A program made the position numbers and the translations under genes. This document shows positions 1 to 30,714 of a stretch of DNA of 32,000 nucleotides, in pieces. How positions within the stretch are numbered: the stretch's first letter is position 1; each line of letters begins with the position of its first letter. Below the pieces are notes generated by a model. The model saw nothing but the letters and a program-made list of their open reading frames with translations. It did no database searches and was not told the origin of the DNA. This DNA comes from Silvanigrella paludirubra (GTDB taxonomy: Bacteria > Bdellovibrionota_B > Oligoflexia > Silvanigrellales > Silvanigrellaceae). The stretch lies in the NCBI RefSeq assembly GCF_009208775.1, contig NZ_WFLM01000003.1, positions 69,374-101,373 on the forward strand, given 5' to 3'.

Positions 1-858
1 TATAATGGAAAAACATATATTGATTATCCAATCTACTTAGGAAATAATTATAAGATTCCATTATTTGTTAGAGAAGGTGCTATTATTCCTCAAATGTTGG
101 TCGATGATAAAACAATGGATATGCTAGGGCTAAGAAGTGATGGAAGTAAAATAAATGATCTCATTTTAAAAGTAGTGCCGAGCAATAATAAAAGTGAATT
201 TACTTTATATGAAGATGATGGTCATTCTATAGATTATAAATCATCTAAATATTCTCAAACTTTAATTTCACAAATTAGATCAGGAAATAATATAACAGTG
301 TCTGTTTCTGCAATTCAAGGAAATTATAATGGAATGCCATTAAAGAGAAAACAATCTGTTGAAATTGCAATTCCAAACGAGACTTTATTATCAATAAATA
401 TAAATGGCAGTCTCTTAAATAAATGCACTGAAAATATAAATGAAAACTGCTGGACACAATCTAGCAGAAATTCTGTAATAGCAAAATTAGGGTATATAGC
501 TACAAATACATCCACTATTTATTCCTTTTCTCTAAAACAAAATGGAAGTAATTATTCGCAGTATAACTTTACATGTTTTAATTCTACAACAAAAACTGGT
601 GAATCTGTTTATATATTAGGTAATACTCCTGAACTTGGAAATTGGGATACATCAAAAGCAATTAAATTAAATCCCGTTGAATATCCAACTTGGTCAGGTT
701 ATTTTTCAAATATTTCTTCAAATACAAATAATATTCAATGGAAATGCCTTAAAAAGAATGATCAATCAAATAATGTTATACAATGGCAAAATGGTCCCAA
801 TAATACATTCAATTCAGTTGTTCGAGGATATGGAGGAAATGTTCAAGGTAGTTTTTAA
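1..858 (+). CDS. glycoside hydrolase, 3' part (GH31-like alpha-glucosidase C-terminus) with C-terminal CBM20 starch-binding module; 5' end lies outside the window
   Basis: Frame 1 is open from nt 1 (YNGKTYIDYPIYLGNNYKIPLFVREGAIIPQ...), so the listed ORF 94..858 is only an internal Met. PLFVREGAIIP resembles the conserved GH31 strand after the catalytic barrel. The last ~90 aa (GESVYILGNTPELGNWDTSKAIKL...IQWKCLKK...VIQWQNGPNNTF) match the CBM20 pattern (LGxW, aromatic platform, W-x-x-G-x-N). Confidence 0.6.
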   Translation, partial: YNGKTYIDYPIYLGNNYKIPLFVREGAIIPQMLVDDKTMDMLGLRSDGSKINDLILKVVPSNNKSEFTLYEDDGHSIDYKSSKYSQTLISQIRSGNNITVSVSAIQGNYNGMPLKRKQSVEIAIPNETLLSININGSLLNKCTENINENCWTQSSRNSVIAKLGYIATNTSTIYSFSLKQNGSNYSQYNFTCFNSTTKTGESVYILGNTPELGNWDTSKAIKLNPVEYPTWSGYFSNISSNTNNIQWKCLKKNDQSNNVIQWQNGPNNTFNSVVRGYGGNVQGSF

Positions 859-910
859 ATAAAAATATTATCTATTTAAAAACTTGATATTTATTTTGCG
901 TCAAATTCAT

Positions 911-952
911 TTATAGAGACTAATATTGTTATTTTATATTCAGTCTCTATAA
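911..952 (+). terminator. possible terminator or regulatory hairpin downstream of the glycosidase gene
   Basis: Perfect inverted repeat TTATAGAGACT (911-921) / AGTCTCTATAA (942-952) with a 20-nt loop, followed by the T-rich TTTATTAT. The long loop and A/T-rich stem make function uncertain. Confidence 0.3.
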
Positions 953-987
953 TTTATTATATGATAAATTTTTTATGGAGTTTTTAA

Positions 988-1518
988 ATGGTAAAAAAGA
1001 TTATTCTTATCATATTATTATTAATTGGATGTGTGCTTGGATACGCGGCATTTCAGCCATCTGAATATGTTATTGAAAGATCCATCCGAATAACAGCATC
1101 ACAACAAACCATATTTGCAAATGTAAATGATTTAAAAAAATTTAATGAATGGAACCCTTGGGCTAAACTCGACCCACAAACAAAAATGACATTTGATGGT
1201 CCAACAGAAGGATTAGGAGCAAGTTACAAATGGGAAGGAAACAATGAAGTTGGCGCAGGACGCATGTCAATCCAAAAAAGTGTACCAAATAATTTGGTCC
1301 AAATGAAACTTGAAATGTTTAAACCTTTTGAAGACGTCAGCTTTGTTGAATTTATCTTGAAACCTGAAGGCAGGGAAACTCTTATCACTTGGAGTATGAA
1401 AGGCAATGCCAACTACATATATAAATTATTATGTTTATTTATTAATAGAGATAAATTGGTTGGAAAAGAATTTGAAAAAGGACTTTCAAACTTAAAATTA
1501 ATGTCTGAAAAGAAGTGA
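988..1518 (+). CDS. SRPBCC-superfamily (polyketide cyclase/START-like) protein with N-terminal membrane anchor or signal
   Basis: 176 aa. GGAG lies 8 nt upstream of the ATG. Hydrophobic N-terminus KKIILIILLLIGCVLGYAAF. The body has the typical length and pattern of Polyketide_cyc2/SRPBCC proteins (WNPW...GxGxxYxW..., alternating beta pattern). Family call is by recollection only. Confidence 0.55.
   Translation: MVKKIILIILLLIGCVLGYAAFQPSEYVIERSIRITASQQTIFANVNDLKKFNEWNPWAKLDPQTKMTFDGPTEGLGASYKWEGNNEVGAGRMSIQKSVPNNLVQMKLEMFKPFEDVSFVEFILKPEGRETLITWSMKGNANYIYKLLCLFINRDKLVGKEFEKGLSNLKLMSEKK
1359..1518 (+). repeat. left copy of 160-nt direct repeat (3' end of the intact SRPBCC gene)
   Basis: Aligns base for base with 6013-6172 at an offset of 4654 nt. 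I count 5 mismatches: 1365, 1394, 1512, 1515 and 1517. Confidence 0.95.
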
Positions 1519-1632
1519 GGGGTTAAGACTCAACCTTAATTTTATCTGACGAAGATATTTACGTGTAATTCATTCTGTTCCATTCAAATTTTGCAAAAGA
1601 TATTTCATTTAGATATTAACTGCCAAAATAAT

Positions 1633-2391
1633 TTACATGTAAAGACCTCCATTAACAGAAATATCTGTGCCTGTAATAAATCCCGAATCTCTGCTGGCTA
1701 AAAAAGTAGCAATTCTAGCGACTTCATAAGTAGTGCCTAAACGTTTTTTAGGGACTCGACTAATAATTATATCCAATTCAGAATTATCTAATGTGGCGGT
1801 GAGATCTGTATTTATGTACCCAGGAGATATTGTATTTACAGTAATATCATAAGACGCTAGTTCTTGTGCAAGAGATTTAGTAAATCCATACATTGCTGAC
1901 TTTGTAGAACAATAATTTGATTCTTTTGATTGACCTTTATGCCCATTTACAGATGAAATATTAATAATTCTACCGAAATTATTATTTTTCATACATTTAA
2001 CTACTGGGTGAGTAATATTATATAAACTAGAAAAGTTTACATCAACAACTGTATTCCATTCAACAAAACTCATTTCAGAAAATTCTTTGTTTCTAGTAAT
2101 TCCAACGTTATTAACAAGGACATCAATTTTACTATTTTTTTGGATGATTTCAATAATTATTTTATCTATTGCCTCTTTATCTGTAATATCTGCTCTAATA
2201 ATATTAAAGAAGTTAAGATATTTATATTTCATTAAGTTATAAAATTCGACTGCCATTATATCATTTTTTTCATATAGAGCGTATACAATTGAACCATGTT
2301 TTAAAAAATCTTCAGATATGGCTTTACCAATACCTCTTGTTCCACCCGTCACAATTACAACATTTGAATTTACTGTGCTTTTATAATTCAT
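1633..2391 (-). CDS. classical short-chain dehydrogenase/reductase (FabG-like)
   Basis: TGGTRGIGKAI cofactor motif, NNVGI, catalytic S...YCSTK (YxxxK) and the PG motif SPGYINTD. Start moved to the ATG at 2391 (MNYKST...), which overlaps the xylA stop by 11 nt. The ORF-track start at 2430 would extend further into xylA. Confidence 0.85.
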   Translation of the reverse strand: MNYKSTVNSNVVIVTGGTRGIGKAISEDFLKHGSIVYALYEKNDIMAVEFYNLMKYKYLNFFNIIRADITDKEAIDKIIIEIIQKNSKIDVLVNNVGITRNKEFSEMSFVEWNTVVDVNFSSLYNITHPVVKCMKNNNFGRIINISSVNGHKGQSKESNYCSTKSAMYGFTKSLAQELASYDITVNTISPGYINTDLTATLDNSELDIIISRVPKKRLGTTYEVARIATFLASRDSGFITGTDISVNGGLYM

Positions 2392-3706
2392 TTTTAAATT
2401 CCCATAAATATTTGTTATATAAATTTTCAATTAATTCATGATTTTCAGAAACTACTTTTGGATTCAGATTATTAAGTAACATATGATCATAGAGATCTTT
2501 TAAGGAAAGTTCACTATTCATGATGCTATTTCCAAATTTTGAGTTCCATGCAGCATATTTATTTTTTATAATATCATCAAAAAAATTATCATTTATGATC
2601 TTTTCTGCAATTAATAAACTTTTTGCTAGTAAGTCAATTCCACCAATATGACTATAAAACAAATCATTTAAATCAGTACTTTGTCTTCGCAATTTTGCGT
2701 CAAAATTAAACCCACCATTTTTAAATCCACCATGCCTTAATATCGAATATATAATAAAGACTGTTTCATCTAAATTATTTGGAAATTGATCTGTATCCCA
2801 ACCAAGCTGTGGATCACCTCTATTTGCATCAATACTTCCAAAAATATTAAGATTAAACGCAGTTTCAACTTCGTGAGCAAAAGAATGACCTGCTAATGTT
2901 GCATGATTTGCTTCGATATTTACTTTTACTTCATTTTCTAAACCATAATTTTTTAGAAATGCGAATACAGTGGAAACATCAAAATCATATTGATGTTTAG
3001 TTGGCTCACATGGTTTTGGTTCAATTAAAATATCACCTTTAAAGCCTATTTTGTGTTTGTATTCAACAACTAGATTAACAAATTTACCGAGCTGCTTAAT
3101 TTCTCTGTTCATAGATGTATTTAAAATAGAAGTATAACCCTCTCTTCCTCCCCATAAGACATAATTTTGACCATTTAATTTGTGAGTTAGATCCATGGCA
3201 TTTTTAACTTTTGCCGCAGCATAACAAAATATTTCAGGGTTAGGATTCGTAGATGCGCCAGACATAAAGCGAGGATGAGAAAATAAATTAGAAGTTCCCA
3301 ATAATAACTTGATTTTTGTATATTCCATTTTTTTTAAGATATAATCTGTATGTCGTTTTGTTTTATCAACAAATTCTGCAAACGAATCAGATTCAGATAT
3401 TAAATCCGTATCATGAAAAGAAAAATATGGAACTCCCAATTTACTAATAAACTCAAACAAAGCATCTGTTTTTGCATAATCGAGATTAGATGAATCTTTA
3501 AACCAGTTACGTTTGAATGTACTCTCTCCAAATATATCATTACCCTGCCAACAGATAGTATGCCAACAGCATATACCAATTTTTAAAATATCCTCCATAC
3601 GCTGACCTAATACAATTTTATTTGGATTATAGTATCGATAAGCTAAGTTATTTCTTGAAGAAGAACCTTCATACATGATTTTTTCAACATTAGGAAAATA
3701 AGTCAT
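2381..3706 (-). CDS. xylA: xylose isomerase, class II (long) type
   Basis: 441 aa with long blocks that I recognise from E. coli/Bacillus XylA: FSFHDTD, YVLWGGREGY, LIEPKPCEPTKHQYDFD, NIEANHATLAGHSFAHE, DANRGDPQLGWDTDQFP, NFDAKLRRQSTD. All metal and catalytic positions appear intact. Confidence 0.92.
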   Translation of the reverse strand: MTYFPNVEKIMYEGSSSRNNLAYRYYNPNKIVLGQRMEDILKIGICCWHTICWQGNDIFGESTFKRNWFKDSSNLDYAKTDALFEFISKLGVPYFSFHDTDLISESDSFAEFVDKTKRHTDYILKKMEYTKIKLLLGTSNLFSHPRFMSGASTNPNPEIFCYAAAKVKNAMDLTHKLNGQNYVLWGGREGYTSILNTSMNREIKQLGKFVNLVVEYKHKIGFKGDILIEPKPCEPTKHQYDFDVSTVFAFLKNYGLENEVKVNIEANHATLAGHSFAHEVETAFNLNIFGSIDANRGDPQLGWDTDQFPNNLDETVFIIYSILRHGGFKNGGFNFDAKLRRQSTDLNDLFYSHIGGIDLLAKSLLIAEKIINDNFFDDIIKNKYAAWNSKFGNSIMNSELSLKDLYDHMLLNNLNPKVVSENHELIENLYNKYLWEFKNEL

Positions 3707-3710
3707 TTTT

Positions 3711-5438
3711 TTATTCTCTATTAAAAGTGTTTAAGTTTTTTAAAGCTAAGGATATTTCATCAATATTAATATCATTAACAAATACATGATTCCCTATTCC
3801 ATTAGGTAACGGAACTCTTTGATAGCCATCTCTGTGTAAAACACGTTCCTGTAAACTATTATATAATTTATTAGCAGATAATTTTGTACTTATTGGCAAA
3901 CCAAATTTTTTAATTAATTCTTTTATTCTTGATAATTCAGAGATAGAAATTAAATTTCTATTAAAAGCAATGATTGACGATATTAAAATATCAACCGCTA
4001 CCGCTTCACCGTGCAACAAATTTTCATCATCTGACATTTCAATAACTAAGCTAAAGGTATGACCAAAATCTACTATTCTTTCTAAGTCAAGCTCCAGGAA
4101 GTTATATTTTAACTCTTCAATCATATCATTTATTGATATATTTAAAATATCTCTTCCTAATAAATTTTGAAATTTATCCGTAATGGAAGTTACACCATGA
4201 TTTTCTAGTAACTCAAATAAATACTTATTTTTAATAACCCCTAATTTAATAATTTCACCAACCCCATTAATTAATTCTCTATCAGGTAGTGTTCTTAAAA
4301 ATGTTGAATCAAGAATACAACATAATGGGGAAGCAAAAGATCCAATTCTGTTTTTATTTTGATTAAAATTTATTCCAGTTTTAATTCCGATTGACGCATC
4401 AATATATCCCATTAAAGTTGTAGGAATTTTAATACAAGGAATACCTCTCCTATATATACTAGCAACAAATCCAGCTAAATCCGTTAATACACCACCACCA
4501 ATTGCAACAATTGGTTGACTACGACGTTGTACACCAAAATCATCTAATATTGTAATTAATTTAATTACATTTGTAATATTTTTATTTTCTTCTCCAGATT
4601 CAAATATAATTGAGTTATATTTTATTTTAAATTTATCAAAAAAGTTATTTATCATATAAATTTGCTCTTTGGATAGTCCAGAATCTAAAATAAGAAATAC
4701 CGCGTTTATTTCTTTAAATATTTTATCAAACATGATATTACTATGGGTGCTAAAAGCATTTCTTAATTCATAAATTTTGTATTCAATAAATGAATCTGAT
4801 TTAATGCTTCCATTAATTTCATTAATAAATGATTTTCCTTCAAATTTATCAATATCGATAAACTTCATATTTGCATTACGTGCAGCTTGAAATCCTGCCT
4901 CAGAATCTTCAAAGACTAAACAATTTTCAGGTGCAACTTTGTGCCTGATGGCTGCTTCAAGAAATAAGTCTGGTTCAGGTTTACCTAATTTAACATCATT
5001 AATTGTAATAATGTCAACAAAATATTTTGTTAAATTATTTATTGCAAGCATTTTACGTATAACTTCTGTTTCTCCTCCAGAAGCTACAATTAATGGTAAA
5101 ACCCCATAATATTTTTTAATAATATTAAGTGTCTTTTCAAATGGCTTCACTTTATTTATATAATTTTTAACGAAAATTTCATCTTTAAGCGCAATCGCTT
5201 TTTTAACATCTAAGCAATAATTTAATTGATGATTTAATACTTTTACTAATTCATCACCACTCGTTCCAGCGTAAGTATCAACAAATTCTTGATTAGATAC
5301 AAAAACACAACCTAATAAACTGTAAGTATCATTCCACGCTTTATAATGCGCCCATACGGTATCCATTAAAGTTCCGTCACAATCAAATATTAAAAGCTCT
5401 GTTTTGTTAAAATCGATAAATTTTTCTAAATATTCCAC
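3711..5438 (-). CDS. fusion protein: N-terminal HAD-IA phosphatase/phosphomutase domain plus C-terminal sugar phosphate cyclase (3-dehydroquinate synthase superfamily, EEVS/DDGS-like)
   Basis: GTG start at 5438 with AAGGA 5 nt upstream. HAD motifs: I FDCDGTLMDT, II IVASGG, III GKPEPD, IV FEDSEAG. Cyclase motifs: IGGGVLTDLAGFVASIYRRGIPCIKIPTTLMGYIDASIGIKTGINF, KNRIGSF, NGVGEIIKLG, DFGHTFS, LLHGEAVAVD. KNRxG and D-A-x-x-G-x-K-T-G-x-N-F resemble 2-epi-5-epi-valiolone-synthase-type enzymes more than AroB (KNLIGAF). The stop lies 4 nt from the xylA start. Confidence 0.75.
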   Translation of the reverse strand: MEYLEKFIDFNKTELLIFDCDGTLMDTVWAHYKAWNDTYSLLGCVFVSNQEFVDTYAGTSGDELVKVLNHQLNYCLDVKKAIALKDEIFVKNYINKVKPFEKTLNIIKKYYGVLPLIVASGGETEVIRKMLAINNLTKYFVDIITINDVKLGKPEPDLFLEAAIRHKVAPENCLVFEDSEAGFQAARNANMKFIDIDKFEGKSFINEINGSIKSDSFIEYKIYELRNAFSTHSNIMFDKIFKEINAVFLILDSGLSKEQIYMINNFFDKFKIKYNSIIFESGEENKNITNVIKLITILDDFGVQRRSQPIVAIGGGVLTDLAGFVASIYRRGIPCIKIPTTLMGYIDASIGIKTGINFNQNKNRIGSFASPLCCILDSTFLRTLPDRELINGVGEIIKLGVIKNKYLFELLENHGVTSITDKFQNLLGRDILNISINDMIEELKYNFLELDLERIVDFGHTFSLVIEMSDDENLLHGEAVAVDILISSIIAFNRNLISISELSRIKELIKKFGLPISTKLSANKLYNSLQERVLHRDGYQRVPLPNGIGNHVFVNDINIDEISLALKNLNTFNRE

Positions 5439-6012
5439 TTTAATCCTTCATTAAATAAAATTTAATTTATAACAACATTATTATAAATAAAAATAGATAT
5501 ATTCTAAAATAATATAAACAAATAAAGAATATTAATAAAATAGTCATATTTTAATTTTCATATAAAATTCAAATATGAGGTAATTAAACACATATTTTAT
5601 ATGTTTTCACGATAATTATATTTAAAATAAAAAAAGTTTATTTATAAAATTAGAACATAATTTAGAATATAAACCATGCGCAGCATCATGTTACGAATAG
5701 CATTTTGCAAATATCCAGTCAAATAATAAATTGGTTTATTTTTTTTAAATATTTTACAATATTAATTATAAATTAAATCGTTTTATCTAAAATATTATTT
5801 ATTCAATAAAATGTTATGAGTAGCTCATTATAAATATGAGTTTTTATAAAATAAATTCACTCTTCTTAAAATCTATGAAAATTAACAATTACTTTTAATT
5901 TGACATTAACCATTCTTCTTTTTTATATTAGCAAATATTTTTCATCATAATATTTCCATCTTGTTTTATAACTACACAAATATTGATTATTTTTTAAATA
6001 AGTTCATTTATA

Positions 6013-6172
6013 GAAACCAGAAGGCAGGGAAACTCTTATCACTTGGAATATGAAAGGCAATGCCAACTACATATATAAATTATTATGTTTATTTATTAAT
6101 AGAGATAAATTGGTTGGAAAAGAATTTGAAAAAGGACTTTCAAACTTAAAATTAATGTCTGAAAAAAACTAA
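6013..6172 (+). pseudogene. orphan 3' fragment of the SRPBCC gene (right copy of the 160-nt direct repeat)
   Basis: Encodes KPEGRETLITWNMKGNANYIYKLLCLFINRDKLVGKEFEKGLSNLKLMSEKN*, in frame and with its own stop. An in-frame TAG (6011-6013) closes it at the homology boundary. It has no start codon or RBS. Confidence 0.9.
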
Positions 6173-6183
6173 AAATTTGAAAA

Positions 6184-6687
6184 TTAATAAGCTCCATCCG
6201 CATAAATCATTTCATATGAATGAGAATATATTTCAATAATATTTCCAAAGGGATCTTCACAATAAACCATGCTAAAAGGTTTTACTCCTGGATTAAAGTA
6301 ACGAACTGGCATTCTTTGCTTGCCGCCTGCTTCTACAATTTTTTCTGCAAGTTCTTCAACATTTGGATCTTGAACACAAAAATGAAACAGTCCTGTTTTA
6401 AATGGAAAAAATTCAGGCATTGGCAATGAATTTGTTTGAGGAAACTCAAACAACTCAACCCCTATTTTATCTGAAGTTGATAAATGAGCAATTCTAAAAC
6501 TTCCGTAACCAGGTCCAAAAACATCTTTACACATCATACCAATAACAGATTTTGGATCTTCTCTAATTTCAGTTGGACGCATAATCATATAAAAACCTAA
6601 AACTTCTTCGTAAAACTGAATCGCTTTTTCTAAATCAGGGACAGTAATTCCGATATGAGAAAACGCTCTAGGGTATGGTTTATTCAT
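6184..6687 (-). CDS. VOC-family (glyoxalase/bleomycin-resistance/dioxygenase fold) protein
   Basis: FSHIGITVPDLEKAIQFYEEVLGF is a typical VOC N-terminal beta-alpha-beta-beta-beta module, and a second module is present (HFCVQDPNVEELAEKIVEAGG...DPFGNIIEI). Start set at the ATG at 6687, preceded by AAGGAG. The upstream extension to 6738 has no RBS. Confidence 0.75.
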   Translation of the reverse strand: MNKPYPRAFSHIGITVPDLEKAIQFYEEVLGFYMIMRPTEIREDPKSVIGMMCKDVFGPGYGSFRIAHLSTSDKIGVELFEFPQTNSLPMPEFFPFKTGLFHFCVQDPNVEELAEKIVEAGGKQRMPVRYFNPGVKPFSMVYCEDPFGNIIEIYSHSYEMIYADGAY

Positions 6688-6853
6688 TATATACTCCTTA
6701 TAAATTTTAGTTTTTAGTATGTAATGCAAAAGAAACATGAAATTATGGCGTAGGACAAAATTAAGTTAACATATTTATTATTTTTGTCAAATAAATTGAG
6801 AGTATAAATTCATTTACTTTTTTTTAAACTTAAAATTTAAAAATAAATATATT

Positions 6854-6997
6854 TTATGGATAATAAGGAGGTGAAGGATTTATAAAAATACAATGTTCCG
6901 GTTTACTCCAAATTAAAAAACATATATTTGCAGAAGCAATATTACTCACAAAAAGGAACCCAATAATAAATAAAGTAGAAAGAAGTTTTAATTTCAT
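6854..6997 (-). CDS. small secreted peptide precursor (47 aa), absent from the supplied ORF track
   Basis: My translation is MKLKLLSTLFIIGFLFVSNIASA/NICFLIWSKPEHCIFINPSPPYYP*. It has a classical Sec signal (K-rich n-region, hydrophobic core, A-S-A cleavage motif). The predicted mature peptide is 24 aa with 2 Cys and a Pro/Tyr-rich tail. GGGGTGA lies just upstream of the ATG and a TTGACA-17-TATTAG promoter lies ~45 nt upstream. Confidence 0.45.
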   Translation of the reverse strand: MKLKLLSTLFIIGFLFVSNIASANICFLIWSKPEHCIFINPSPPYYP

Positions 6998-7041
6998 ATA
7001 TCACCCCTATTTAATAAAGAAATACTTTTAATTCATCGTTA

Positions 7042-7070
7042 CTAATAAACCATTTATTTATATTTGTCAA
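7042..7070 (-). promoter_or_regulatory. sigma70-type promoter for the small peptide gene
   Basis: On the minus strand: TTGACA (7070-7065), a 17-nt spacer, then TATTAG (7047-7042). The -35 is perfect and the -10 matches 4 of 6. Confidence 0.35.
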
Positions 7071-7323: not shown

Positions 7324-7809
7324 ATGTTAAAAGAATTTCGAATTTTTAATATTATTTTCTTGGTATTATCATTCATAGCAATGAGTAGTACTTATGCGAA
7401 TGAAGTCATAGGTACATCAAAAGTGATTTATAAAAAATTAGATGCTCTTCAATTAAATGGCTCTAATTGCTCTTTAAGTGATAATGAATGCTTAAATTTC
7501 AAAAATATCTGCAACTCACTTTATGGAAATATGCTTCAAAGTGAAATTATTTTAAATTATAAGATTAATACACAAACAAATATGCATTATGGTATTTTAA
7601 CTTATCAAAATATAGATATTCCTTTAGCTTCTGCAGGAATTTCAGGAGAATATACTTTTTTAACCCCTTCAATACCAAGCCCATTAGATAGAACTATTCG
7701 AATTATTTTTTTTACTTTAGATAAAAACTTTGAAAATGCATATTCTTTTCTCCATTTTAGAGATAGCAATACAAATCAAAAATACCAATGTGTTTTAAGC
7801 TCAAAATAA
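7324..7809 (+). CDS. hypothetical secreted protein (161 aa)
   Basis: AGAGGA RBS. Signal peptide FNIIFLVLSFIAMSSTYA/NE. The mature part contains 5 Cys. I recognise no family. Confidence 0.5.
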   Translation: MLKEFRIFNIIFLVLSFIAMSSTYANEVIGTSKVIYKKLDALQLNGSNCSLSDNECLNFKNICNSLYGNMLQSEIILNYKINTQTNMHYGILTYQNIDIPLASAGISGEYTFLTPSIPSPLDRTIRIIFFTLDKNFENAYSFLHFRDSNTNQKYQCVLSSK

Positions 7810-9809: not shown

Positions 9810-10454
9810 ATGATTTATTTCAATATTAAATTTATTCAATTTATATGCATCTTCTCTTTAAATATTATTTTAATAAGTTCAGCTTTTTCAAGTAACAATG
9901 AATCCTCTGCTGGTGCTGTCGTTGGTTTATTTCAACCAACTTATGGAAAATTTGCAACAATTGCTTCAAACGCGAGTCAACCTACTTTTCCAACCAGCAT
10001 GTTGATGTTGGGTGGTGATGCTACTTTTATGAGAAAAGGATTTTTTACAGGTGGTCGTGTTTTATATGGAAGCACAGCAACAAGTAGCGTTAGTACTTCG
10101 GCAAGCACTTATGAATTAACAACACTTGGATTAAAATCTGGTTATGGATTTGATTTATCTTTTATAGATTTTAAATTAGGTGGTTTATTTGGAGTAGGGA
10201 ATTTAAATTTTACCTCGATAAATAGTTCACAAAGTGGAAGCATTATAGTGGATTATTTATTTATTGAACCATTTTTAATGTTAGGAGTTTCAGGAGGAAA
10301 AAATTTTAAAGCAAGTATGGGAGGAGGATATCATTATACCTTTCCATATAAAGTAACAACTTATGGAAGTACACTAATCTCTGATCCCTCCCAAGCAACT
10401 GTCTCAGGAATTATGATAACATTTTTACTTAGCTTTGGAGATTTTGGTAAGTAA
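9810..10454 (+). CDS. hypothetical secreted protein, possibly a small outer-membrane beta-barrel
   Basis: Signal-like N-terminus (FICIFSLNIILISSAFS). Gly/Ser/Thr/aromatic-rich with alternating hydrophobic patterns (LTTLGLKSGYGFDLSFIDFKLGGLFGVGNLNF). The fold call is an inference only. Confidence 0.4.
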   Translation: MIYFNIKFIQFICIFSLNIILISSAFSSNNESSAGAVVGLFQPTYGKFATIASNASQPTFPTSMLMLGGDATFMRKGFFTGGRVLYGSTATSSVSTSASTYELTTLGLKSGYGFDLSFIDFKLGGLFGVGNLNFTSINSSQSGSIIVDYLFIEPFLMLGVSGGKNFKASMGGGYHYTFPYKVTTYGSTLISDPSQATVSGIMITFLLSFGDFGK

Positions 10455-15863: not shown

Positions 15864-17045
15864 TTATAATTGATGATTATTTTTTGAAAGATCACATATT
15901 AATTGATTACGCTTTAGTTTACCAAGTTCAGTCCTCGGAATTTTATCTATAAAATAAATATTTTTTATTTTCTCAAAAGGAAAAACTCTTTTATTAAATT
16001 CATTTTTAATTTGGTCAAATAATTTACTAGATTTTATATTATCTTTTGTAAAAACAAGTGAAATTTTATTTTCCAATCGTTCATCTTTTTCATAAATAAC
16101 TGCAGCATCATCATTATATTCAAGTTCTGTTTTTAAATCTAATAAAATATGATCTAATCTAGATAAAGAAACATTCTCACCTGAAACTTTAATAACATCA
16201 TCACTTCTTCCATAAATTTGAAGAAATGAATCCTTAATATTACCAATATCTGAAGTAATTAAATACTTATCTGATTCATTTGAAATATGAGTTTTAACAT
16301 CTAAAAATTGAGTTTCATTATTTTTTAAAATTATGTATCCAGTTAATAAAGAAGAACCTGAAATACTTAAATTTCCATATTCATTTTTTTTAACATTTAA
16401 ATGATCTAAAATTTTTAATTCTGGATAGGTTGTTTCCCATTTAAAATTTATAGCAGCAGTTGCAATTTGAGAAGCACATTCCGTCATTCCATAGCTTGGT
16501 AATAAAGGCCAATTTAATTTTTTTGCTTTGTCATATAAAGATTTTGATAAAGCACCACCACCAACCACAACGGCTCTAAGGGACGGAGGGGAAGTCAAAT
16601 TTTGATTGATTAAATCATAAATTTGTGTTGGAACTAAAGAAGCAATAGTTACTTTATTTTTAATAATTTCTTGTATGAAATAATTTGCATCCCATTTTAA
16701 AGAATCAGAATATACATTTATTAATTTTGCACCACTTAAATAAGACCTAGAATATAATGATAAGCCACCAATATGAAAATAGGGTAGGGCATTTAAAAGA
16801 ATATCATTTTTAGTACAATCTAAATGATTGTTAACTGATTTTGAAGAATTTAAAATCGCATTTTTACTCAAGGCTACAAATTTCATTTCACTTGAATTTA
16901 AAGCAGTTGAGCCTGATGTTGCTAAAATAATATGGGATTCAAGAGAATAATCTTTAATCACTTTATTCAAAGATAAATTATGTAATGGCAAGGCTTTAGG
17001 ATTTAAAAAAACATGGGATTCATTGGAAAGCCAATCTATTTTCAT
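15864..17045 (-). CDS. menE: o-succinylbenzoate-CoA ligase-like ANL adenylating enzyme (short form)
   Basis: ANL motifs YGMTECAS, ITSDIG, GRSDDVIKVSGENV and IPRTELGKLKR. The P-loop is atypical (TSGSTALNSS rather than TSGTTGxPK). The ATG at 17045 forms an ATGA overlap with the menC stop, with GGAG 10 nt upstream. The men assignment rests on operon context. Confidence 0.7.
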   Translation of the reverse strand: MKIDWLSNESHVFLNPKALPLHNLSLNKVIKDYSLESHIILATSGSTALNSSEMKFVALSKNAILNSSKSVNNHLDCTKNDILLNALPYFHIGGLSLYSRSYLSGAKLINVYSDSLKWDANYFIQEIIKNKVTIASLVPTQIYDLINQNLTSPPSLRAVVVGGGALSKSLYDKAKKLNWPLLPSYGMTECASQIATAAINFKWETTYPELKILDHLNVKKNEYGNLSISGSSLLTGYIILKNNETQFLDVKTHISNESDKYLITSDIGNIKDSFLQIYGRSDDVIKVSGENVSLSRLDHILLDLKTELEYNDDAAVIYEKDERLENKISLVFTKDNIKSSKLFDQIKNEFNKRVFPFEKIKNIYFIDKIPRTELGKLKRNQLICDLSKNNHQL

Positions 17046-18082
17046 ACAAGTCTTCTCCAACGTTCTTTGCTTAATAGTTTATCAAAACCAAATCCATATC
17101 CCTCATTAGAAGGTATTAATTTTGTATCTATAACTGAAAATGTCTCTGAATAACAATTATTTTCATATAAAGTATGTGTTAATAAACCGCACTCATTTAT
17201 TTTTTGCTTATTTTTTACGTAAAACAGAGAGGACTCATATAAAGCGCATAATTGCCCTAAAGGATGATCCATATAACTTGTAAAAAGAATATTCTTGCTC
17301 GTATTGGGATCGATGTTTTCTTCGGAAAAATATTGAATAGCAGGTTTTAATATTAAATAATCAAAGGATAATGAATTTATAAAATTGTTTTTTAATTCAT
17401 TATCTTTAATTCTATCTATTCCAAGTTTTATATTTGGATACTTTGTTTTAATATGTAGCCAATCATTTTCAGAAAATAAAATTGGATCTTCTAAAAAATC
17501 AATTAAATTTAAAAACTCACCAATCTCATTTAAAAAATAAAAAATTTTCTCAAAATCACAAGAATTATTAAAATCTAATCTTAGCTTTATATTTAATTTT
17601 TTTAAAATCTGAGAATTATTTTTAATAACTTGAGCTTCATTTTTTAAATTTAGGCCACATTTTATTTTAATTTTTAAAAATCCTTGCTCATTTAATTGTT
17701 CAATAAATTCGCTTGATAGCAAATTAACATCAGTACAAGTAAAATGATTTTTAGGTATAAATAATCCACTAAAAATATTTTGTTTTTTTGCTCGATATAA
17801 AGAATCTATGTAAGAAAAATAAATGCTCTTTTTTAAATGAATATTATATTCATTATTTTTTAAATTTAAAATTTGATCTTTCAAAGAAAAATCTCCAAGC
17901 TCTTCCCATGAAAAACAATCAGAATAGCCCTCACCAGTTTCTTTAAAATTTATTTTAAGTAAAAAACCCGGTCTGTGATTTGAAGATTTATATTTTGAAT
18001 TTAAACTATATTTTGGCTTTAAAGTATACTCTGCTATTTCAATATTTTGAATTTGTGATTGGATATTAAAAAATTTATTCAT
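17042..18082 (-). CDS. menC: o-succinylbenzoate synthase (enolase superfamily)
   Basis: Enolase-superfamily landmarks in order: KIKIKCG (KxK), KLRLDFN, IDFLEDP, LGIDR and LILKP. Sits in the men operon. Confidence 0.7.
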   Translation of the reverse strand: MNKFFNIQSQIQNIEIAEYTLKPKYSLNSKYKSSNHRPGFLLKINFKETGEGYSDCFSWEELGDFSLKDQILNLKNNEYNIHLKKSIYFSYIDSLYRAKKQNIFSGLFIPKNHFTCTDVNLLSSEFIEQLNEQGFLKIKIKCGLNLKNEAQVIKNNSQILKKLNIKLRLDFNNSCDFEKIFYFLNEIGEFLNLIDFLEDPILFSENDWLHIKTKYPNIKLGIDRIKDNELKNNFINSLSFDYLILKPAIQYFSEENIDPNTSKNILFTSYMDHPLGQLCALYESSLFYVKNKQKINECGLLTHTLYENNCYSETFSVIDTKLIPSNEGYGFGFDKLLSKERWRRLV

Positions 18083-18908
18083 TTGTATAAAATTTTATAT
18101 TCATCTTTTTAGATGATTCTATTTTAGAATTTATATCATATCTTTGTTCATAAAATTGCATTGAGCTGTCAGGTTTAATTCCAAATAATAAAGTTGAATT
18201 TGTACCATATTTTTCACTAGAAATAAACAAAGAGGATAAAAAAACCTCTTGTTCTGGCGGGACACCTGTATCTGGTAGATCAGAGATATCATAAGTTTTA
18301 TTGTTCATCATCTCAGTCTTAAAATAGATCCAATAATCATCAAACGTTTTTAATTTATTATCCTGATTATTAAAAAAGGCTGAAAACGTTTTTTTGGTAT
18401 TTTTAATTTTTGGCCAATTTGAATCTATTTTACCATTACTCAATCCAAAAATTTTTTTTGTATTATCACCTGTTTTAAATAATAATTTACTTTCATGATC
18501 TTTACTATGATAATAATAAATGCACTCACCATCTGAAAAAATTAAATTAAAATAATTATATTCATGGGCTATTTTTTTAAGACGATTTAAGTATGATTCT
18601 GCTGTATCACTTGAATTTAAAAAATCTAGAATAATATCACCTCTAGACTTTAAGTCTTCTTTATAAGATTTTAAATGGCGAATATTTGTTAATATAGCCC
18701 ATTTTGGATTGATTATATTTTGACAAGCAAACCAAGTGCCCTTTTTATATTCATCGCGAGGCGCAATAATATCATTGCCATAAAATTGCAAATCACGATC
18801 CCAACCATTAATATTGGAAGATTTTCTTTTTTTATATTCATCTCTATTAGAGATAATTACTATAGGAAAATCTTTTATTTGATTAATGAATAAAAACAAT
18901 GTGCACAA
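18075..18908 (-). CDS. NRDE-family protein (DUF833, TANGO2 homologue)
   Basis: TTG start followed directly by Cys (M-C-T-L-F). Eponymous motif VIISNRDEY at residues ~17-25. Length of 277 aa is typical of the family. It lies 6 nt after menA and overlaps menC by 8 nt. Confidence 0.8.
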   Translation of the reverse strand: MCTLFLFINQIKDFPIVIISNRDEYKKRKSSNINGWDRDLQFYGNDIIAPRDEYKKGTWFACQNIINPKWAILTNIRHLKSYKEDLKSRGDIILDFLNSSDTAESYLNRLKKIAHEYNYFNLIFSDGECIYYYHSKDHESKLLFKTGDNTKKIFGLSNGKIDSNWPKIKNTKKTFSAFFNNQDNKLKTFDDYWIYFKTEMMNNKTYDISDLPDTGVPPEQEVFLSSLFISSEKYGTNSTLLFGIKPDSSMQFYEQRYDINSKIESSKKMNIKFYTNE

Positions 18909-18914
18909 ATTAAA

Positions 18915-19829
18915 TTACCTTATAAAAAAGCCAATCCCCATTAAAAATCCAAATAAAATTTGAGTTAAGGCAGACATACCCAAATATTTATTAAATATTT
19001 GAGATGGTTCGTTATTTAGTATACTTATAATAATTTTAATTGCTAGAGGTAAAGTTAGCATTGGTAACAAACCTGCCCATATATTTCCGCTATAAACCCA
19101 ATAAATATTAAGCAAATAAGTAAATAAAAATAAAAGAACAATTTCAATTCTAGCAAATTTTTTTCCGAATCGAGCCGCCAATGTCATTTTACCAACTCGT
19201 TTATCACCTATATAATCTCTAAAATTATTAATAGAAATTAATACTGTTGCAAGTAAGCCTACTTGAAGACCAGCTATTATAGGAGCTGCAGTAATAAATC
19301 CAGTTTGTAAATAAAAAACACCAAGAACTGCCGTAAATCCAAAAAATAAAATAACAAATAATTCGCCTAAACCAACATAAGCTAAAGGATAAGGGCCGCC
19401 AGTATATAAATATCCAAATAATAAAGAAATAATTCCAATTATTATGATTGGAATTCCCCCATGAATAACGATTGGTATTGAAAAAAGAATGGCAATCAAA
19501 AAACTTAAAAATCCACCAAACATGACTTGTTTTGAATTTAAAAGACCACTTTGAGTTACTCTTTTAGGACCTAACCTATTTTCATCATCTGCTCCCTTTT
19601 TGAAATCAAGAGCGTCATTAATTAAATTGGTTCCAATTTGAATAAAAATAGAAGCAAGTAGGGCAAATATACTATATGCCCATGTTACTTTATTTTCTGT
19701 AGGGCGTAAAACAGAATATGCAACAGCAGTTGCAACAAAAATAGGGGTAAATGCGGCTGATAATGTTTTAGGTCTTGAAGCCAAAATCCAAGGAATTATT
19801 TTATTTGTTTTTTTTAGCGTGTTATCCAT
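18915..19829 (-). CDS. menA: 1,4-dihydroxy-2-naphthoate polyprenyltransferase (UbiA family)
   Basis: ASRPKTL N-terminal motif, NDALDFKKGADDENRLGP (first Asp-rich motif), second motif NNFRDYIGDKRVGK, and ~9 TM helices. Confidence 0.85.
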   Translation of the reverse strand: MDNTLKKTNKIIPWILASRPKTLSAAFTPIFVATAVAYSVLRPTENKVTWAYSIFALLASIFIQIGTNLINDALDFKKGADDENRLGPKRVTQSGLLNSKQVMFGGFLSFLIAILFSIPIVIHGGIPIIIIGIISLLFGYLYTGGPYPLAYVGLGELFVILFFGFTAVLGVFYLQTGFITAAPIIAGLQVGLLATVLISINNFRDYIGDKRVGKMTLAARFGKKFARIEIVLLFLFTYLLNIYWVYSGNIWAGLLPMLTLPLAIKIIISILNNEPSQIFNKYLGMSALTQILFGFLMGIGFFIR

Positions 19830-19835
19830 TTATCC

Positions 19836-20660
19836 TCACGGAAATCTATCGAATTTATTAAAATCGGGTTTTCTTTTTTCAATGAAGGCTTCTTTTCCTT
19901 CTTTTGCTTCTTCACTTAAGTAATAAAGAAGTGTTGCATTTCCAGCTAAATCAAGCAAACCAATTTGTCCATCACAATCTGCATTTAAGGAAGCTTTTAA
20001 ACAGCGTAATGCAAGTGGAGAATGCTCTAACATTTCTCGGCACCATTTTAATGTTTCTGCTTCAAGTTCATCTACAGGAACAACATGATTTACTAATCCC
20101 ATTTCTAAAGCTTGTGTTGCATTATATTGACGACATAAATACCAAATTTCTCTTGCTTTCTTTTGTCCTACAATTCTTGCTAAATAACTACTTCCAAGAC
20201 CACCATCAAATGAGCCTACTTTAGGTCCTGTTTGTCCAAACTTAGCATTATCTCCTGCAATCGTGAGATCACAAACAACATGTAGAACATGCCCCCCACC
20301 AATTGCATAGCCAGCAACCATAGCTACAACTGGCTTTGGCATAGACCTTATCGCTTTTTGGACGTCTAATATATTTAAACGTGGCAAACCATCTTGACCA
20401 ACATAACCACCATTTCCTCTTACTTTTTGATCGCCACCTGAACAAAATGCCTCTTTGCCTTCACCGGTTAATATAATGACACCGATTTTTGAATTATCTC
20501 TGCATATTTCAAAAGCCTGTAATAATTCTTTTACGGTTTCAGGACGAAATGCATTTCGTACATGAGGGCGGTTTATCGTTATTTTTGCTATACCATCTTC
20601 TGTTCTATCTAATTTAATATCTTGAAACTCATGCATTGTATTCCAAATATTTAAGCTCAT
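19836..20660 (-). CDS. menB: 1,4-dihydroxy-2-naphthoyl-CoA synthase
   Basis: Crotonase fold with MenB-specific blocks [44 protein letters not shown] and a C-terminal [14 protein letters not shown]. Start set at the ATG at 20660, preceded by AAGGAG; the track start at 20756 adds 32 unsupported residues. Confidence 0.95.
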
Positions 20661-20835
20661 AGTGGACTCCTTCATAAAGAGAATTGTAAGTATATCCATA
20701 CCATATTTGTATTTACTTATTTTCTGTTGAAAATTCAACAATTTTGATTCGACCAAAATATATTGAAAAAATATATTTTAAATATTTTTTTACTTGTCTG
20801 AAAACACTTAAGAAACATTATTTCAATTTTTTTAT

Positions 20836-21013: not shown

Positions 21014-21637
21014 ATGAGAAATAACTTACAAAAAAATAATAATACGTCTTTTGTTTCAAATAATATGAATAAATTACATAATTCTTTGTATAAAAAAATT
21101 ATTGAAGGAGATAATCAAGATGGGATATTATATATTTTTACACAAACATTCAAATATTTAGAACAAGAACTAAATATAAACAGATATGATATTTTTTATG
21201 AATTTATAGAAAATCATATTTATCTTGAAAAAAAAGAAGATAATCTAATAGAAGATATTTTTTATTTATTTTTAAAAGATTTAAATTTTTTTAATAATAT
21301 AATAGTAAAATATTACTCTCTTCATGAAATGACAAAAATGTTATGCTTAACAAATAAATTTAATACAAATATAAAATCAATAAAATTTAACAGAATAGGG
21401 AAAAGCTATTGGACTGTTATTAACTTTCCTGATTCTTGTGAAGATTTATTTAAAATAAAATTACCATTTAAATCAAACTTTAACGAAATAAAAGTTCTTT
21501 ATATTTCATCAAATAAAGGATTTTTCAACGGAATAATCAATCATAATATTGAAAAATATCTTTATTTATATTCAAATGATGAAATTATTTCTGATTTGAA
21601 TATGGAATCTGTTTTTATGAAAATTGGATTAGTTTAA
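21014..21637 (+). CDS. hypothetical protein (207 aa), no recognisable family
   Basis: Long ORF in an otherwise ORF-poor AT-rich region, Asn/Lys/Ile/Phe-rich. A segment LHEMTKMLCLTNKFNTNIKSIKFNRIGKSYW loosely resembles excisionase/MerR-type HTH spacing. Its 3' end overlaps the convergent ADH gene by 4 nt. Confidence 0.4.
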   Translation: MRNNLQKNNNTSFVSNNMNKLHNSLYKKIIEGDNQDGILYIFTQTFKYLEQELNINRYDIFYEFIENHIYLEKKEDNLIEDIFYLFLKDLNFFNNIIVKYYSLHEMTKMLCLTNKFNTNIKSIKFNRIGKSYWTVINFPDSCEDLFKIKLPFKSNFNEIKVLYISSNKGFFNGIINHNIEKYLYLYSNDEIISDLNMESVFMKIGLV

Positions 21638-29786: not shown

Positions 29787-30713
29787 ATGAAAACTAAAAC
29801 TCTTATTATAAATGATCTCTATGTAGCAATCCACACTCCCAAAAATTGGAATGGCCATTGTGTATTTTATGTCCACGGCGGGCCAGGGAGCCATTCAAAA
29901 GATTTTGAAGAAGGCTTAACTCATTTTAATGCATTTTATGAATCACAATTAGCTTTTATAACTTATGATCAAAGAGGATCTGGCAGATCAAAAATAAAAG
30001 AGAATGAAATAAAAACTTTAAACCATAGAGGAAATATTGAAGATTTAAAAACTCTTCTCATGGCGACACAAGAAGTTTTTAATTTAAAATTACCACCAGT
30101 GTTGTATGGACATAGTTATGGTGCGCGTTTGGTTTACGACTACCTATGGAATAATCCAAAAATGGATTTTAAATTTATTTTATCTGGAACAAGTCTTCAT
30201 CCAAATGATTGTTTAAATACTTCATTAGGGTTGGATCTTCTTGTTTTACGCAATAGTCAACCAAAAGAATTTAAAAAAGCAGTAGAATTAATCTCAAAAG
30301 CTAATATTGAGCCCTATGAAATTTCGCCTGAAATTCGAAAACTTTTTTCAGACTTAAAAATGAGACAAAAAGAAAGACAAAAATATTATTGGGTAAATGA
30401 AAACGCAATGAATTGGTGGAATAAAATAGACTCAGAACATAATGTAAAAGATTCGGATGAAGCTTATTTTAAAATAGTATCCTCATTTAACGACGAAACA
30501 TTTAATTCAGGATCATTTAACCCCTGTTTACTAAAACAAAAAAGTCTTTATATTAATGGATTTCATGACTATTTAATGAATGGAACGATAAAATTTAATA
30601 TAGAAGATCAAAGTAAAATTGTCCGCTTTAATACTTCAGCACATTATCCTCATTTTGAAGAACCGGAATTATTTATAAAAACGTTATTAAAATTTATTTT
30701 GGATGATAACTAG
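29787..30713 (+). CDS. alpha/beta hydrolase (S33 proline-iminopeptidase-like)
   Basis: HGGPGS oxyanion motif (YVHGGPGSHS), nucleophile elbow GHSYGA, a cap-domain insert and a C-terminal SAHYPHFEEP (catalytic His region). Confidence 0.75.
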   Translation: MKTKTLIINDLYVAIHTPKNWNGHCVFYVHGGPGSHSKDFEEGLTHFNAFYESQLAFITYDQRGSGRSKIKENEIKTLNHRGNIEDLKTLLMATQEVFNLKLPPVLYGHSYGARLVYDYLWNNPKMDFKFILSGTSLHPNDCLNTSLGLDLLVLRNSQPKEFKKAVELISKANIEPYEISPEIRKLFSDLKMRQKERQKYYWVNENAMNWWNKIDSEHNVKDSDEAYFKIVSSFNDETFNSGSFNPCLLKQKSLYINGFHDYLMNGTIKFNIEDQSKIVRFNTSAHYPHFEEPELFIKTLLKFILDDN

Positions 30714-30714
30714 A

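Follow-up and report, generated by a model that had tools for sequence, protein, structure and literature searches.

Three minus-strand open reading frames (ORFs) fill positions 1633-5438 of a 32-kb stretch of DNA from Silvanigrella paludirubra (hereafter the window; G+C ~27-29%). They encode a fusion of a HAD phosphatase and a sugar-phosphate cyclase, a xylose isomerase homologue (XylA), and a short-chain dehydrogenase/reductase (SDR). We put forward, with evenly balanced confidence, that they form a self-contained, horizontally mobile cassette that would make a reduced C7 cyclitol (carbasugar) from sedoheptulose 7-phosphate, the chemistry being deduced from sequence comparisons. More tentatively, a sub-clade of XylA may have been recruited to isomerize a carbocyclic ketocyclitol of the EEV (2-epi-5-epi-valiolone) type in place of an aldose. 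The strict XylA family would then have its first carbasugar isomerase. Joined with a cyclase of the EEV synthase type and a ketoreductase, this enzyme would make up the smallest mobile cassette yet known to yield a new C7 cyclitol, circulating in AT-rich freshwater and possibly host-associated bacteria. The cassette is a variant of the cyclitol clusters based on EEV synthase (EEVS), and its unexpected part is the recruited XylA clade. S. paludirubra itself belongs to the Oligoflexia and lives in fresh water; its genome measures 3.9 Mbp at 29.3% G+C (PMC7386786). The same genes had been singled out in an earlier reading of the sequence alone, here called the original prediction. The features of the islet that holds them, and of its borders, are as follows:

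1359-1514, plus strand: left copy of a 156-nt direct repeat, in the 3' end of an SRPBCC-family gene (988-1518)
1633-2391, minus strand: SDR ketoreductase, classical and PhaB/FabG-like, 252 aa from ATG
2381-3706, minus strand: isomerase of the XylA family, 441 aa, in the Leu-pocket clade
3290-3301, minus strand: codons of the altered pocket motif L136-G-T-S139 (LLGTSNLF against the canonical LWGTANLF)
3711-5438, minus strand: fusion gene, 575 aa, with a GTG start and GAAGGA 8 nt upstream; N-terminal HAD-IA phosphatase and C-terminal EEVS-like cyclase
3711-4826, minus strand: cyclase domain (~aa 205-575), sedoheptulose-7-phosphate cyclase/EEVS type
4839-5438, minus strand: HAD domain (~aa 1-200), beta-phosphoglucomutase/YqaB type
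5439-6012, minus strand: islet leader, AT-rich and non-coding, with GAAGGA as ribosome-binding site and a promoter-like site whose -35 lies at 5508 and whose -10 ends at 5480
6013-6168, plus strand: right copy of the 156-nt repeat, an orphan 3' end of the SRPBCC-family gene that keeps the frame and has a stop codon of its own

The XylA homologue would pass as an ordinary enzyme in any annotation pipeline. It scores 653 bits against the NCBIfam xylose isomerase model (cutoff 459) and 616 bits against TIGR02630 (cutoff 533), and it is 56-59% identical to canonical class II XylA. All ten catalytic and metal-binding residues are kept, both here and in five other XylAs from trios of the same kind (H102, D105, E233, K235, E269, H272, D297, D308, D310, and D340 in PirXI numbering). 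The earlier description of this protein as canonical is therefore right as far as annotation cutoffs and the catalytic set go, but it does not extend to the pocket, since the protein belongs to a separate clade marked by W140L, A143S, and two more changes. Residues W50, F61, W140, F146, and W189 line the class II pocket and have been used as a membership filter (PMC9891696). Four of them are kept in the window's enzyme, and W140 alone is changed, to Leu. At this position all six trio XylAs have Leu and the other 115 of 115 have Trp. The homologue set consisted of the 120 best XylA matches, among which five are Leu-type and 114 have the WGTA motif, the last one being missed by the motif search but showing Trp in the alignment. 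In total, four positions that are invariant or nearly so in canonical enzymes are changed in the clade (W136L, A139S, Y147F, and Q166K in the window's numbering), and at all four the alignment matches the state of a class I glucose isomerase (M88, T91, F99, and K118 of 1MNZ). The Streptomyces rubiginosus sequence used for this comparison agrees with PDB 1MNZ at 388/388 residues. In a neighbor-joining tree, the method used for all trees here, the Leu clade is monophyletic with a bootstrap of 100/100. Met87 and Thr89 in class I enzymes, and Trp139 and Thr141 in a class II enzyme, reportedly contact the C6-OH of a bound hexose, and replacing Trp139 with a smaller residue (Leu, Phe, or Met) is said to shift the preference from xylose to glucose. 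By these residue roles, the pocket of the clade would have opened for a substrate larger than xylose, its chemistry unchanged.

The pocket change goes together with a gene context. In every case a Leu-type XylA gene lies between a cyclase gene and a reductase gene, and in none is it adjoined by xylB, xylR, or a gene for a xylose transporter. Outside the window, the trio loci are metagenomic contigs of 2.5-6 kb. Three of the five best XylA matches adjoin a cyclase and a reductase. The closest (P0121, XylA 90% identical) is found on three freshwater metagenome contigs (L006-L008) with the same arrangement, the same 11-nt overlap, and 87% nucleotide identity to the window. The second (P0122, 64%; L005) has upstream of it a cyclase that stands alone, and downstream an aldo-keto reductase (AKR) followed by an IS110-family transposase gene (4293-5231, minus strand). 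The third (P0125, 58%; L012) lies between a cyclase and an SDR, beside a SemiSWEET-type PQ-loop transporter. Two further proteins, P0132 and P0168, were chosen as predicted trio members by their Leu residue alone, and both adjoin a cyclase. In the first case (L015) the order is cyclase, XylA, SDR, and then a PQ-loop transporter; in the second (L016) it is cyclase, XylA, SDR, and then an NT5C-type phosphatase and a transporter of the MFS family. Controls of the Trp type behave otherwise: P0123 and P0127 (Coxiella sp.), of similar XylA identity, have an adjacent FGGY kinase gene, and P0129 sits in a full xylR/transporter/GH43/xylA/xylB locus. The tally is thus five of five Leu-type enzymes in trios and three of three Trp-type controls in xyl operons. 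Neither xylB nor a xylose transporter or regulator was found in the window or in any trio locus.

The neighborhood survey that the original prediction had called for has therefore found the trio, in the same order of cyclase, XylA, and ketoreductase, in five independent lineages: the window's own and those of L005, L012, L015, and L016, whose XylAs are 57-71% mutually identical. This supports the earlier view that the three genes work as one unit. Pairwise identities of cyclase, XylA, and SDR group the loci alike. The window goes with L006 and then L005 (which joins by its cyclase and XylA only, having no SDR), L012 goes with L015, and L016 stands apart. This shared grouping indicates that the cassette has long moved and diverged as a unit. 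In L005 the SDR is replaced by the non-homologous AKR, from which ketoreduction appears to be a required function. In L012 (4062-5381) and L015 (4437-5249), a protein of ~439 aa without a Pfam match, 60% identical between the two, adjoins both the cassette and the SemiSWEET gene, and it may be an extra component of the cassette. None of the 80 species-genome loci with the closest cyclases carries XylA or the trio SDR (0/80), and a degenerate DNA pattern for Leu-type XylA gave 0 matches in 185,579 species genomes, a set that apparently lacks S. paludirubra itself. In the JGI metagenome collection, the same pattern gave one match, the known L007, while missing two known JGI contigs, which makes this a weak absence.

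The cassette looks horizontally mobile, given the direct repeats in the window and the IS110 transposase gene in L005. In the window, the two copies of the 156-nt repeat are 98% identical, lie 4,654 nt apart, and enclose just the three genes and ~570 nt of non-coding DNA, so that these genes are, as first described, the sole cargo of a repeat-bounded islet. Because the 3' end of the SRPBCC-family gene is duplicated, the 4,654-bp piece must have been inserted into the end of that gene. No integrase or transposase gene occurs within the islet, and the insertion may have come about through a Campbell-type single crossover or through an integrase acting in trans. Comparison of L006 (2958-3089) with the window (1519-1632) shows that their likeness stops exactly at the SDR stop codon, which means that the downstream context is different there. 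Inside the islet the genes are tightly packed. The ORF coordinates reproduce the packing reported at the outset, with a gap of 4 nt between the fusion and XylA genes (3707-3710) and an 11-nt overlap between the XylA and SDR genes (2381-2391). Promoter and terminator scans of this AT-rich DNA did no better than on shuffled sequence, promoter-like matches being no commoner, and the ~570-nt leader gave no credible match to Rfam families or to a riboswitch.

At NCBI the fusion protein has an identical entry, "HAD-IA family hydrolase [Silvanigrella paludirubra]" (P0001). Its C-terminal part matches DHQ_synthase (2e-38) and DHQS_C (5e-22) over residues 277-530 (PF01761, PF24621). That the cyclase belongs to the sedoheptulose-7-phosphate (EEVS-like) branch and not with AroB of the shikimate pathway had been proposed from its motifs, all of which are present in the translation (IDASIGIKTGINF, KNRIG, DFGHTFS, and LLHGEAV). 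Judged from sequence and structure matches the placement holds, because the domain misses the cutoff of the aroB equivalog TIGR01357 (228 bits against 305), ranks ValA first among known structures, and keeps ValA-type residues. In the PDB ranking, ValA (4P53; 256.8 bits, 3e-75) is followed by desmethyl-4-deoxygadusol synthase (DDGS, 5TPR; 198.5 bits, 2e-57), then by the dehydroquinate synthases (155.7 bits at best, 2e-44 or weaker), and by DOIS (99.8 bits, 2e-27). The three metal ligands of ValA (E/H/H) are conserved in the alignment as the E of NGVGEIIK, the H of VDFGH, and the H of LLHGE. We take these to be E213, H284, and H300 of ValA, a numbering that fits the PDB chain once the offset of 6 residues from its tag is counted. 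ValA residues Asp281 and His360 are presumably the ones that discriminate EEVS from DDGS, in which Ala and Thr take their places. At these positions the window reads IVDFGH and LHRDG, against VIAYGH and LTRDG in DDGS 5TPR, and the ValA state is found in all trio cyclases. The inspection of substrate-discriminating residues suggested earlier thus gives EEVS-type and not DDGS-type residues at both presumed positions. Other motif positions at which ValA and DDGS differ (KTG against KVA, HGE against HGH) match ValA as well. The existence of two discriminator sites and of a 14-site EEVS fingerprint is described in an eLife paper.

The third gene encodes a regular ketoreductase. Its longest ORF begins at TTG 2430, and it is the ATG start that yields the 11-nt overlap; the 84%-identical SDR gene of L006 also encodes 252 aa, as with the ATG start. 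The family motifs are all in place (VTGGTRGIG for TGxxxGxG, NISSVNG for the Ser, and NYCSTK for YxxxK), the adh_short profile matches with 181 bits (3e-53), and the best PDB relatives are PhaB and FabG. We take the TGGTRGIG motif to reflect the use of NADPH, as in FabG. SDR orthologues in the other cassettes are 50-57% identical.

The HAD domain is of a different standing. HAD_2 is matched over residues 16-194 in the Pfam profile search (94.6 bits, 1e-26), and motifs I-IV are all present (FDCDGTLMDT, IVASGG, KLGKPEPD, and FEDSEAG). The domain scores under the cutoffs of both TIGR02009 and the YqaB-type model, so that it reaches no equivalog cutoff. Its relatives in the PDB are beta-phosphoglucomutase, the phosphatase domain of MtlD (7OCN/7OCT), and the sugar-bisphosphate phosphatase CbbY. 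The homologues nearest to it (60-61% identity) stand alone as proteins, and their genes lie in unrelated contexts, where no link to cyclases was seen. No other HAD-cyclase fusion occurs among the best 150 matches out of 1.84 billion representatives. Longer cyclase matches were considered as candidate fusions of this kind, and those checked were ROK-kinase fusions or had unassigned N-termini. The other cassettes carry stand-alone cyclases, and one of them has an unrelated HAD-superfamily phosphatase. From this comparison, the HAD domain is best read as an accessory add-on limited to the window's lineage and not as part of the cassette core. The original prediction had included it in its minimal pathway, which needs correcting, as it is fused in this lineage only and the other cassettes are without it or have a different phosphatase. 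The gene of the closest stand-alone relative (61%; L099, 8001-8660) lies ~3 kb from that of a giant TcdA/TcdB-type glucosyltransferase toxin (1-4991), a neighbor that suggests a host-associated organism.

From these parts a three-step pathway can be proposed. The cyclase would convert sedoheptulose 7-phosphate to an alpha-hydroxyketone of the EEV type. The Leu-pocket XylA would then move the carbonyl of this alpha-hydroxyketone from C1 to C2 by its two-metal hydride shift. Matched carbon by carbon, this step would be a carbocyclic version of the isomerization by which glucose becomes fructose: the C7 hydroxymethyl group would come to lie in the place of the glucose C6-OH, facing the opened wall of the pocket. 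Finally the SDR (the AKR in the L005 lineage) would reduce the remaining ketone, probably with NADPH, to a saturated C7 polyol. More speculatively, the HAD domain might supply the substrate, for instance by dephosphorylating a sugar bisphosphate to sedoheptulose 7-phosphate as CbbY does. The neutral product may be exported or accumulated, and could be a compatible solute, a glycosidase inhibitor, or a signal. The SemiSWEET (L012, L015) and MFS (L016) neighbors suggest transport of such a neutral product, or of a sugar. The original prediction had XylA and the HAD domain act before the cyclase. We would instead put XylA after it. The gene order and the lack of any kinase point that way, as does the fact that this cyclase clade is found again and again with enzymes of the xylose-isomerase fold. 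As judged from gene neighborhoods, this part of the cyclase superfamily is one that has been paired at least three times with an enzyme of that fold. IolI, an inosose isomerase, has a xylose-isomerase-like fold. This precedent, together with the repeated pairing, supports an isomerase that acts on a ketocyclitol.

Several points weigh against this proposal. Every chemical step is deduced from sequence, and co-transcription of the three genes is suggested by their spacing alone. A true xylose isomerase acts on open-chain sugars, and a carbocycle cannot open; we know of no member of the strict XylA family that acts on a cyclitol. The Leu-pocket change suits a plain hexose isomerase equally well, and a phosphatase has no obvious role after a cyclization that itself removes the phosphate. 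The trio cyclases are 42-44% identical to ValA, and in the neighbor-joining tree they form no resolved clade apart from cyclases linked to LuxS and UbiA genes; from these two facts, the substrate and product may differ from sedoheptulose 7-phosphate and EEV.

The ordering of the original prediction leads, in essence, to an alternative that we think unlikely. Here the XylA homologue would act upstream on a free sugar (glucose/fructose or xylose) and feed the pentose-phosphate pool toward sedoheptulose 7-phosphate, leaving the SDR alone to reduce the cyclase product. The passed equivalog cutoff, the intact catalytic residues, and the resemblance of the pocket to class I glucose isomerases all suit such an enzyme, as do the sugar-type transporters (SemiSWEET, MFS) that adjoin three cassettes. 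The W139F change in a class II enzyme reportedly raises its preference for glucose. However, a kinase (xylB, fructokinase, or hexokinase) is present in none of the five cassettes (0/5) nor in the 32-kb window, so the cassette itself would offer the product of such an isomerase no way into phosphorylated metabolism. Trp-type XylAs, by contrast, always adjoined xylB. Nor does sugar supply account for the one-to-one synteny, the co-divergence, and the exclusive XylA clade.

That the cyclase takes another sugar phosphate, or gives another ketocyclitol, is a possibility to which we attach rather little weight. With a hexose 6-phosphate, as used by DOIS or by EboD/DEIS, the same isomerase-reductase logic would lead to a C6 deoxy-inositol (quercitol-like) or some other cyclitol. 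The modest identity to ValA noted above speaks for it, along with the position of the window cyclase in a clade separate from ValA's, and a hexose-sized XylA pocket would accept a C6 cyclitol equally well. There is also a precedent in EboD, which was long annotated as similar to dehydroquinate synthase or EEVS, and which, according to passages of a 2026 review of cyclitols, makes a deoxy-inosose from mannose 6-phosphate. On the other side, the two discriminator positions and the motifs around them agree with ValA and not with DDGS, and ValA scores 257 bits against 100 for DOIS.

It is improbable that the XylA homologue acts as a ketocyclitol C2-epimerase or dehydratase in place of a ValD/CetB-type step, after which the SDR would give an unsaturated cyclitol of the valienol/streptol type. 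In the validamycin, cetoniacytone, and streptol routes, 2-epimerization and dehydration precede the reduction of EEV. The xylose-isomerase fold does include epimerases and the dehydratase IolE, and streptol is, according to PMC8599487, a bioactive glucose analogue from EEVS clusters. But XylA chemistry is a metal-mediated hydride shift and not an enolization, and the unchanged catalytic set therefore favors the ancestral type of reaction. Finally, automatic annotation would return the very names of three unrelated neighbors, an AroB of the shikimate pathway with a phosphatase attached, a plain xylose isomerase, and a paralogue of FabG/PhaB, but such a chance assembly is hardly credible given the missed aroB cutoff with EEVS as best structural relative, a gene order that recurs in five lineages with XylAs 57-71% identical, and a Leu-type XylA clade exclusive to the cyclase context.

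The proposed C7 cassette is best understood beside the known systems that it resembles. EEVS clusters (validamycin val, acarbose acb, cetoniacytone cet, the Burkholderia kirkamide/streptol K/S clusters, and vertebrate gadusol EEVS + MT-Ox) likewise combine a ValA-like cyclase with ketoreductases. Many of them also contain a HAD phosphatase, a HAD protein being found in the Burkholderia leaf-nodule K and S clusters too, and EEVS clusters are often horizontally acquired, with mobile elements alongside. ValO and AcbJ are the HAD phosphatases of the validamycin and acarbose clusters. The cassette differs in having only three genes, without a kinase, aminotransferase, nucleotidyltransferase, (pseudo)glycosyltransferase, VOC-type epimerase, or methyltransferase, and in having a true XylA-family isomerase, which our literature search did not find reported in any EEVS cluster. 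A cyclitol kinase, aminotransferase, nucleotidyltransferase, or pseudoglycosyltransferase gene was likewise found neither in the islet, nor in the 32-kb window, nor in the trio loci within contig reach. With canonical xylAB operons the cassette shares a XylA of 56-59% identity that reaches the equivalog cutoff and has identical metal and catalytic residues, whereas Trp140 -> Leu, Ala143 -> Ser, Tyr -> Phe, and Gln -> Lys set it apart from canonical class II XylA. IolI, like the enzyme proposed here, shifts the carbonyl of a ketocyclitol, but it is catabolic and distantly related to XylA. The bifunctional MtlD of Acinetobacter is similar in that a HAD-IA phosphatase makes up the N-terminus of a fusion with a sugar-phosphate enzyme, and in its polyol solute product. 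Its phosphatase, however, strips a phosphate left by the partner domain, whereas the cyclase of the cassette would already eliminate the phosphate.

The ebo operon comes close in another way, as it joins a cyclase (EboD) and a TIM barrel of the xylose-isomerase superfamily (EboE) in one widely transferred operon. EboE has no more than a marginal link to PF01261 and is no XylA, and EboD, which takes mannose 6-phosphate, has a clade of its own. For its pathway ebo further requires EboA, a UbiA prenyltransferase, a TatD-like hydrolase, and a phosphodiesterase, and the islet is without all four. No eboA, eboB, eboC, or eboF lies beside the cyclase, the window's one UbiA protein being encoded by a menA-like gene that belongs to the men operon and lies at a distance of 13 kb. 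The earlier statement that no trio of cyclase, xylose isomerase, and SDR is known stands for the searchable literature, where no paper describing this cassette was found, specialist papers lying outside that coverage. The only relevant papers from full-text searches were two, the ebo paper and one with an Anaerolineales neighbor table. The statement needs the qualification that in ebo a cyclase is already accompanied by a TIM barrel distantly similar to xylose isomerase. Passages of the 2026 cyclitol review make no mention of such a cassette.

The cyclases closest to the window's in species genomes form a sister group with a context of its own. These 80 proteins, 48-53% identical to the window's, come mostly from Anaerolineales, and some from Proteobacteria, Paracaedibacteraceae, and Tissierellales. 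They are stand-alone enzymes (L019-L098, also L001 and L003; at ~6001-7070 in most) in a strongly conserved five-gene cluster, in which the cyclase is accompanied by a LuxS-like gene (80/80), a xylose-isomerase-like TIM barrel (77/80), a methyltransferase (74/80), and a UbiA prenyltransferase (73/80). In Tissierellales the cluster has radical-SAM genes instead. The Anaerolineales cluster resembles the cassette in its cyclases, the closest relatives of the window's, and in its adjoining enzyme of xylose-isomerase fold, and differs in its LuxS-like, UbiG-like methyltransferase, and UbiA genes. These TIM barrels were considered as XylA orthologues and rejected, since BLAST against the window XylA is not significant; they are IolO/hydroxypyruvate-isomerase-like. 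The five-gene cluster looks like an ebo-like route to a prenylated cyclitol that has not been described before, being found in the literature only as a list of neighbors (PMC8756737).

C7 cyclitols include acarbose, validamycin, the precursors of voglibose, kirkamide, and gadusol, and new routes to them matter for the discovery of glycosidase inhibitors and for biocatalysis. The proposed cassette needs three genes and one central metabolite, which makes it easy to express and test. If the proposal is true, a "xylose isomerase" named by a pipeline can conceal another function behind a few pocket changes. A simple sequence rule would identify such XylAs: LLGT[SA]NLF in place of LWGTANLF, in a gene between a cyclase and a reductase. 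Since the pocket changes copy industrial class I glucose isomerases, they also amount to a natural data set to draw on when class II enzymes are to be engineered for larger substrates.

Elsewhere in the 32-kb window, no shikimate, xylB, kinase, aminotransferase, or glycosyltransferase genes were found, which agrees with the earlier remark that no other shikimate gene lies near the cyclase. Two genes outside the islet were considered and set aside. At 94-858 (plus strand) the window edge cuts into a GH31-type glycosidase gene (DUF5110), leaving its C-terminal part, which has a starch-binding domain of the CBM20 family. This gene was weighed as a pointer to a glycosidase inhibitor and is taken as coincidence, being outside the islet with another gene between. 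Just beyond the right repeat (6184-6738, minus strand), a VOC-family protein scores above the cutoff of TIGR03645 ("glyox_marine", a hypothetical equivalog). As a candidate ValD/CetB-type epimerase it is not counted in the cassette, since it lies outside the islet and belongs to this unrelated family. Pfam gave no match for four ORFs, 161-374 aa in length (7324-7809, 9810-10454, 21014-21637, and 30703-31827). The remainder of the window is housekeeping in character, with menaquinone (men) genes, the glycine-cleavage system, an ABC exporter, a pyrophosphatase, and others. The menaquinone genes form a row on the minus strand (15864-20756), MenE-like and MenC-like followed by MenA-like and MenB-like, and a TANGO2-family gene (18075-18908) sits between the MenC-like and MenA-like genes.

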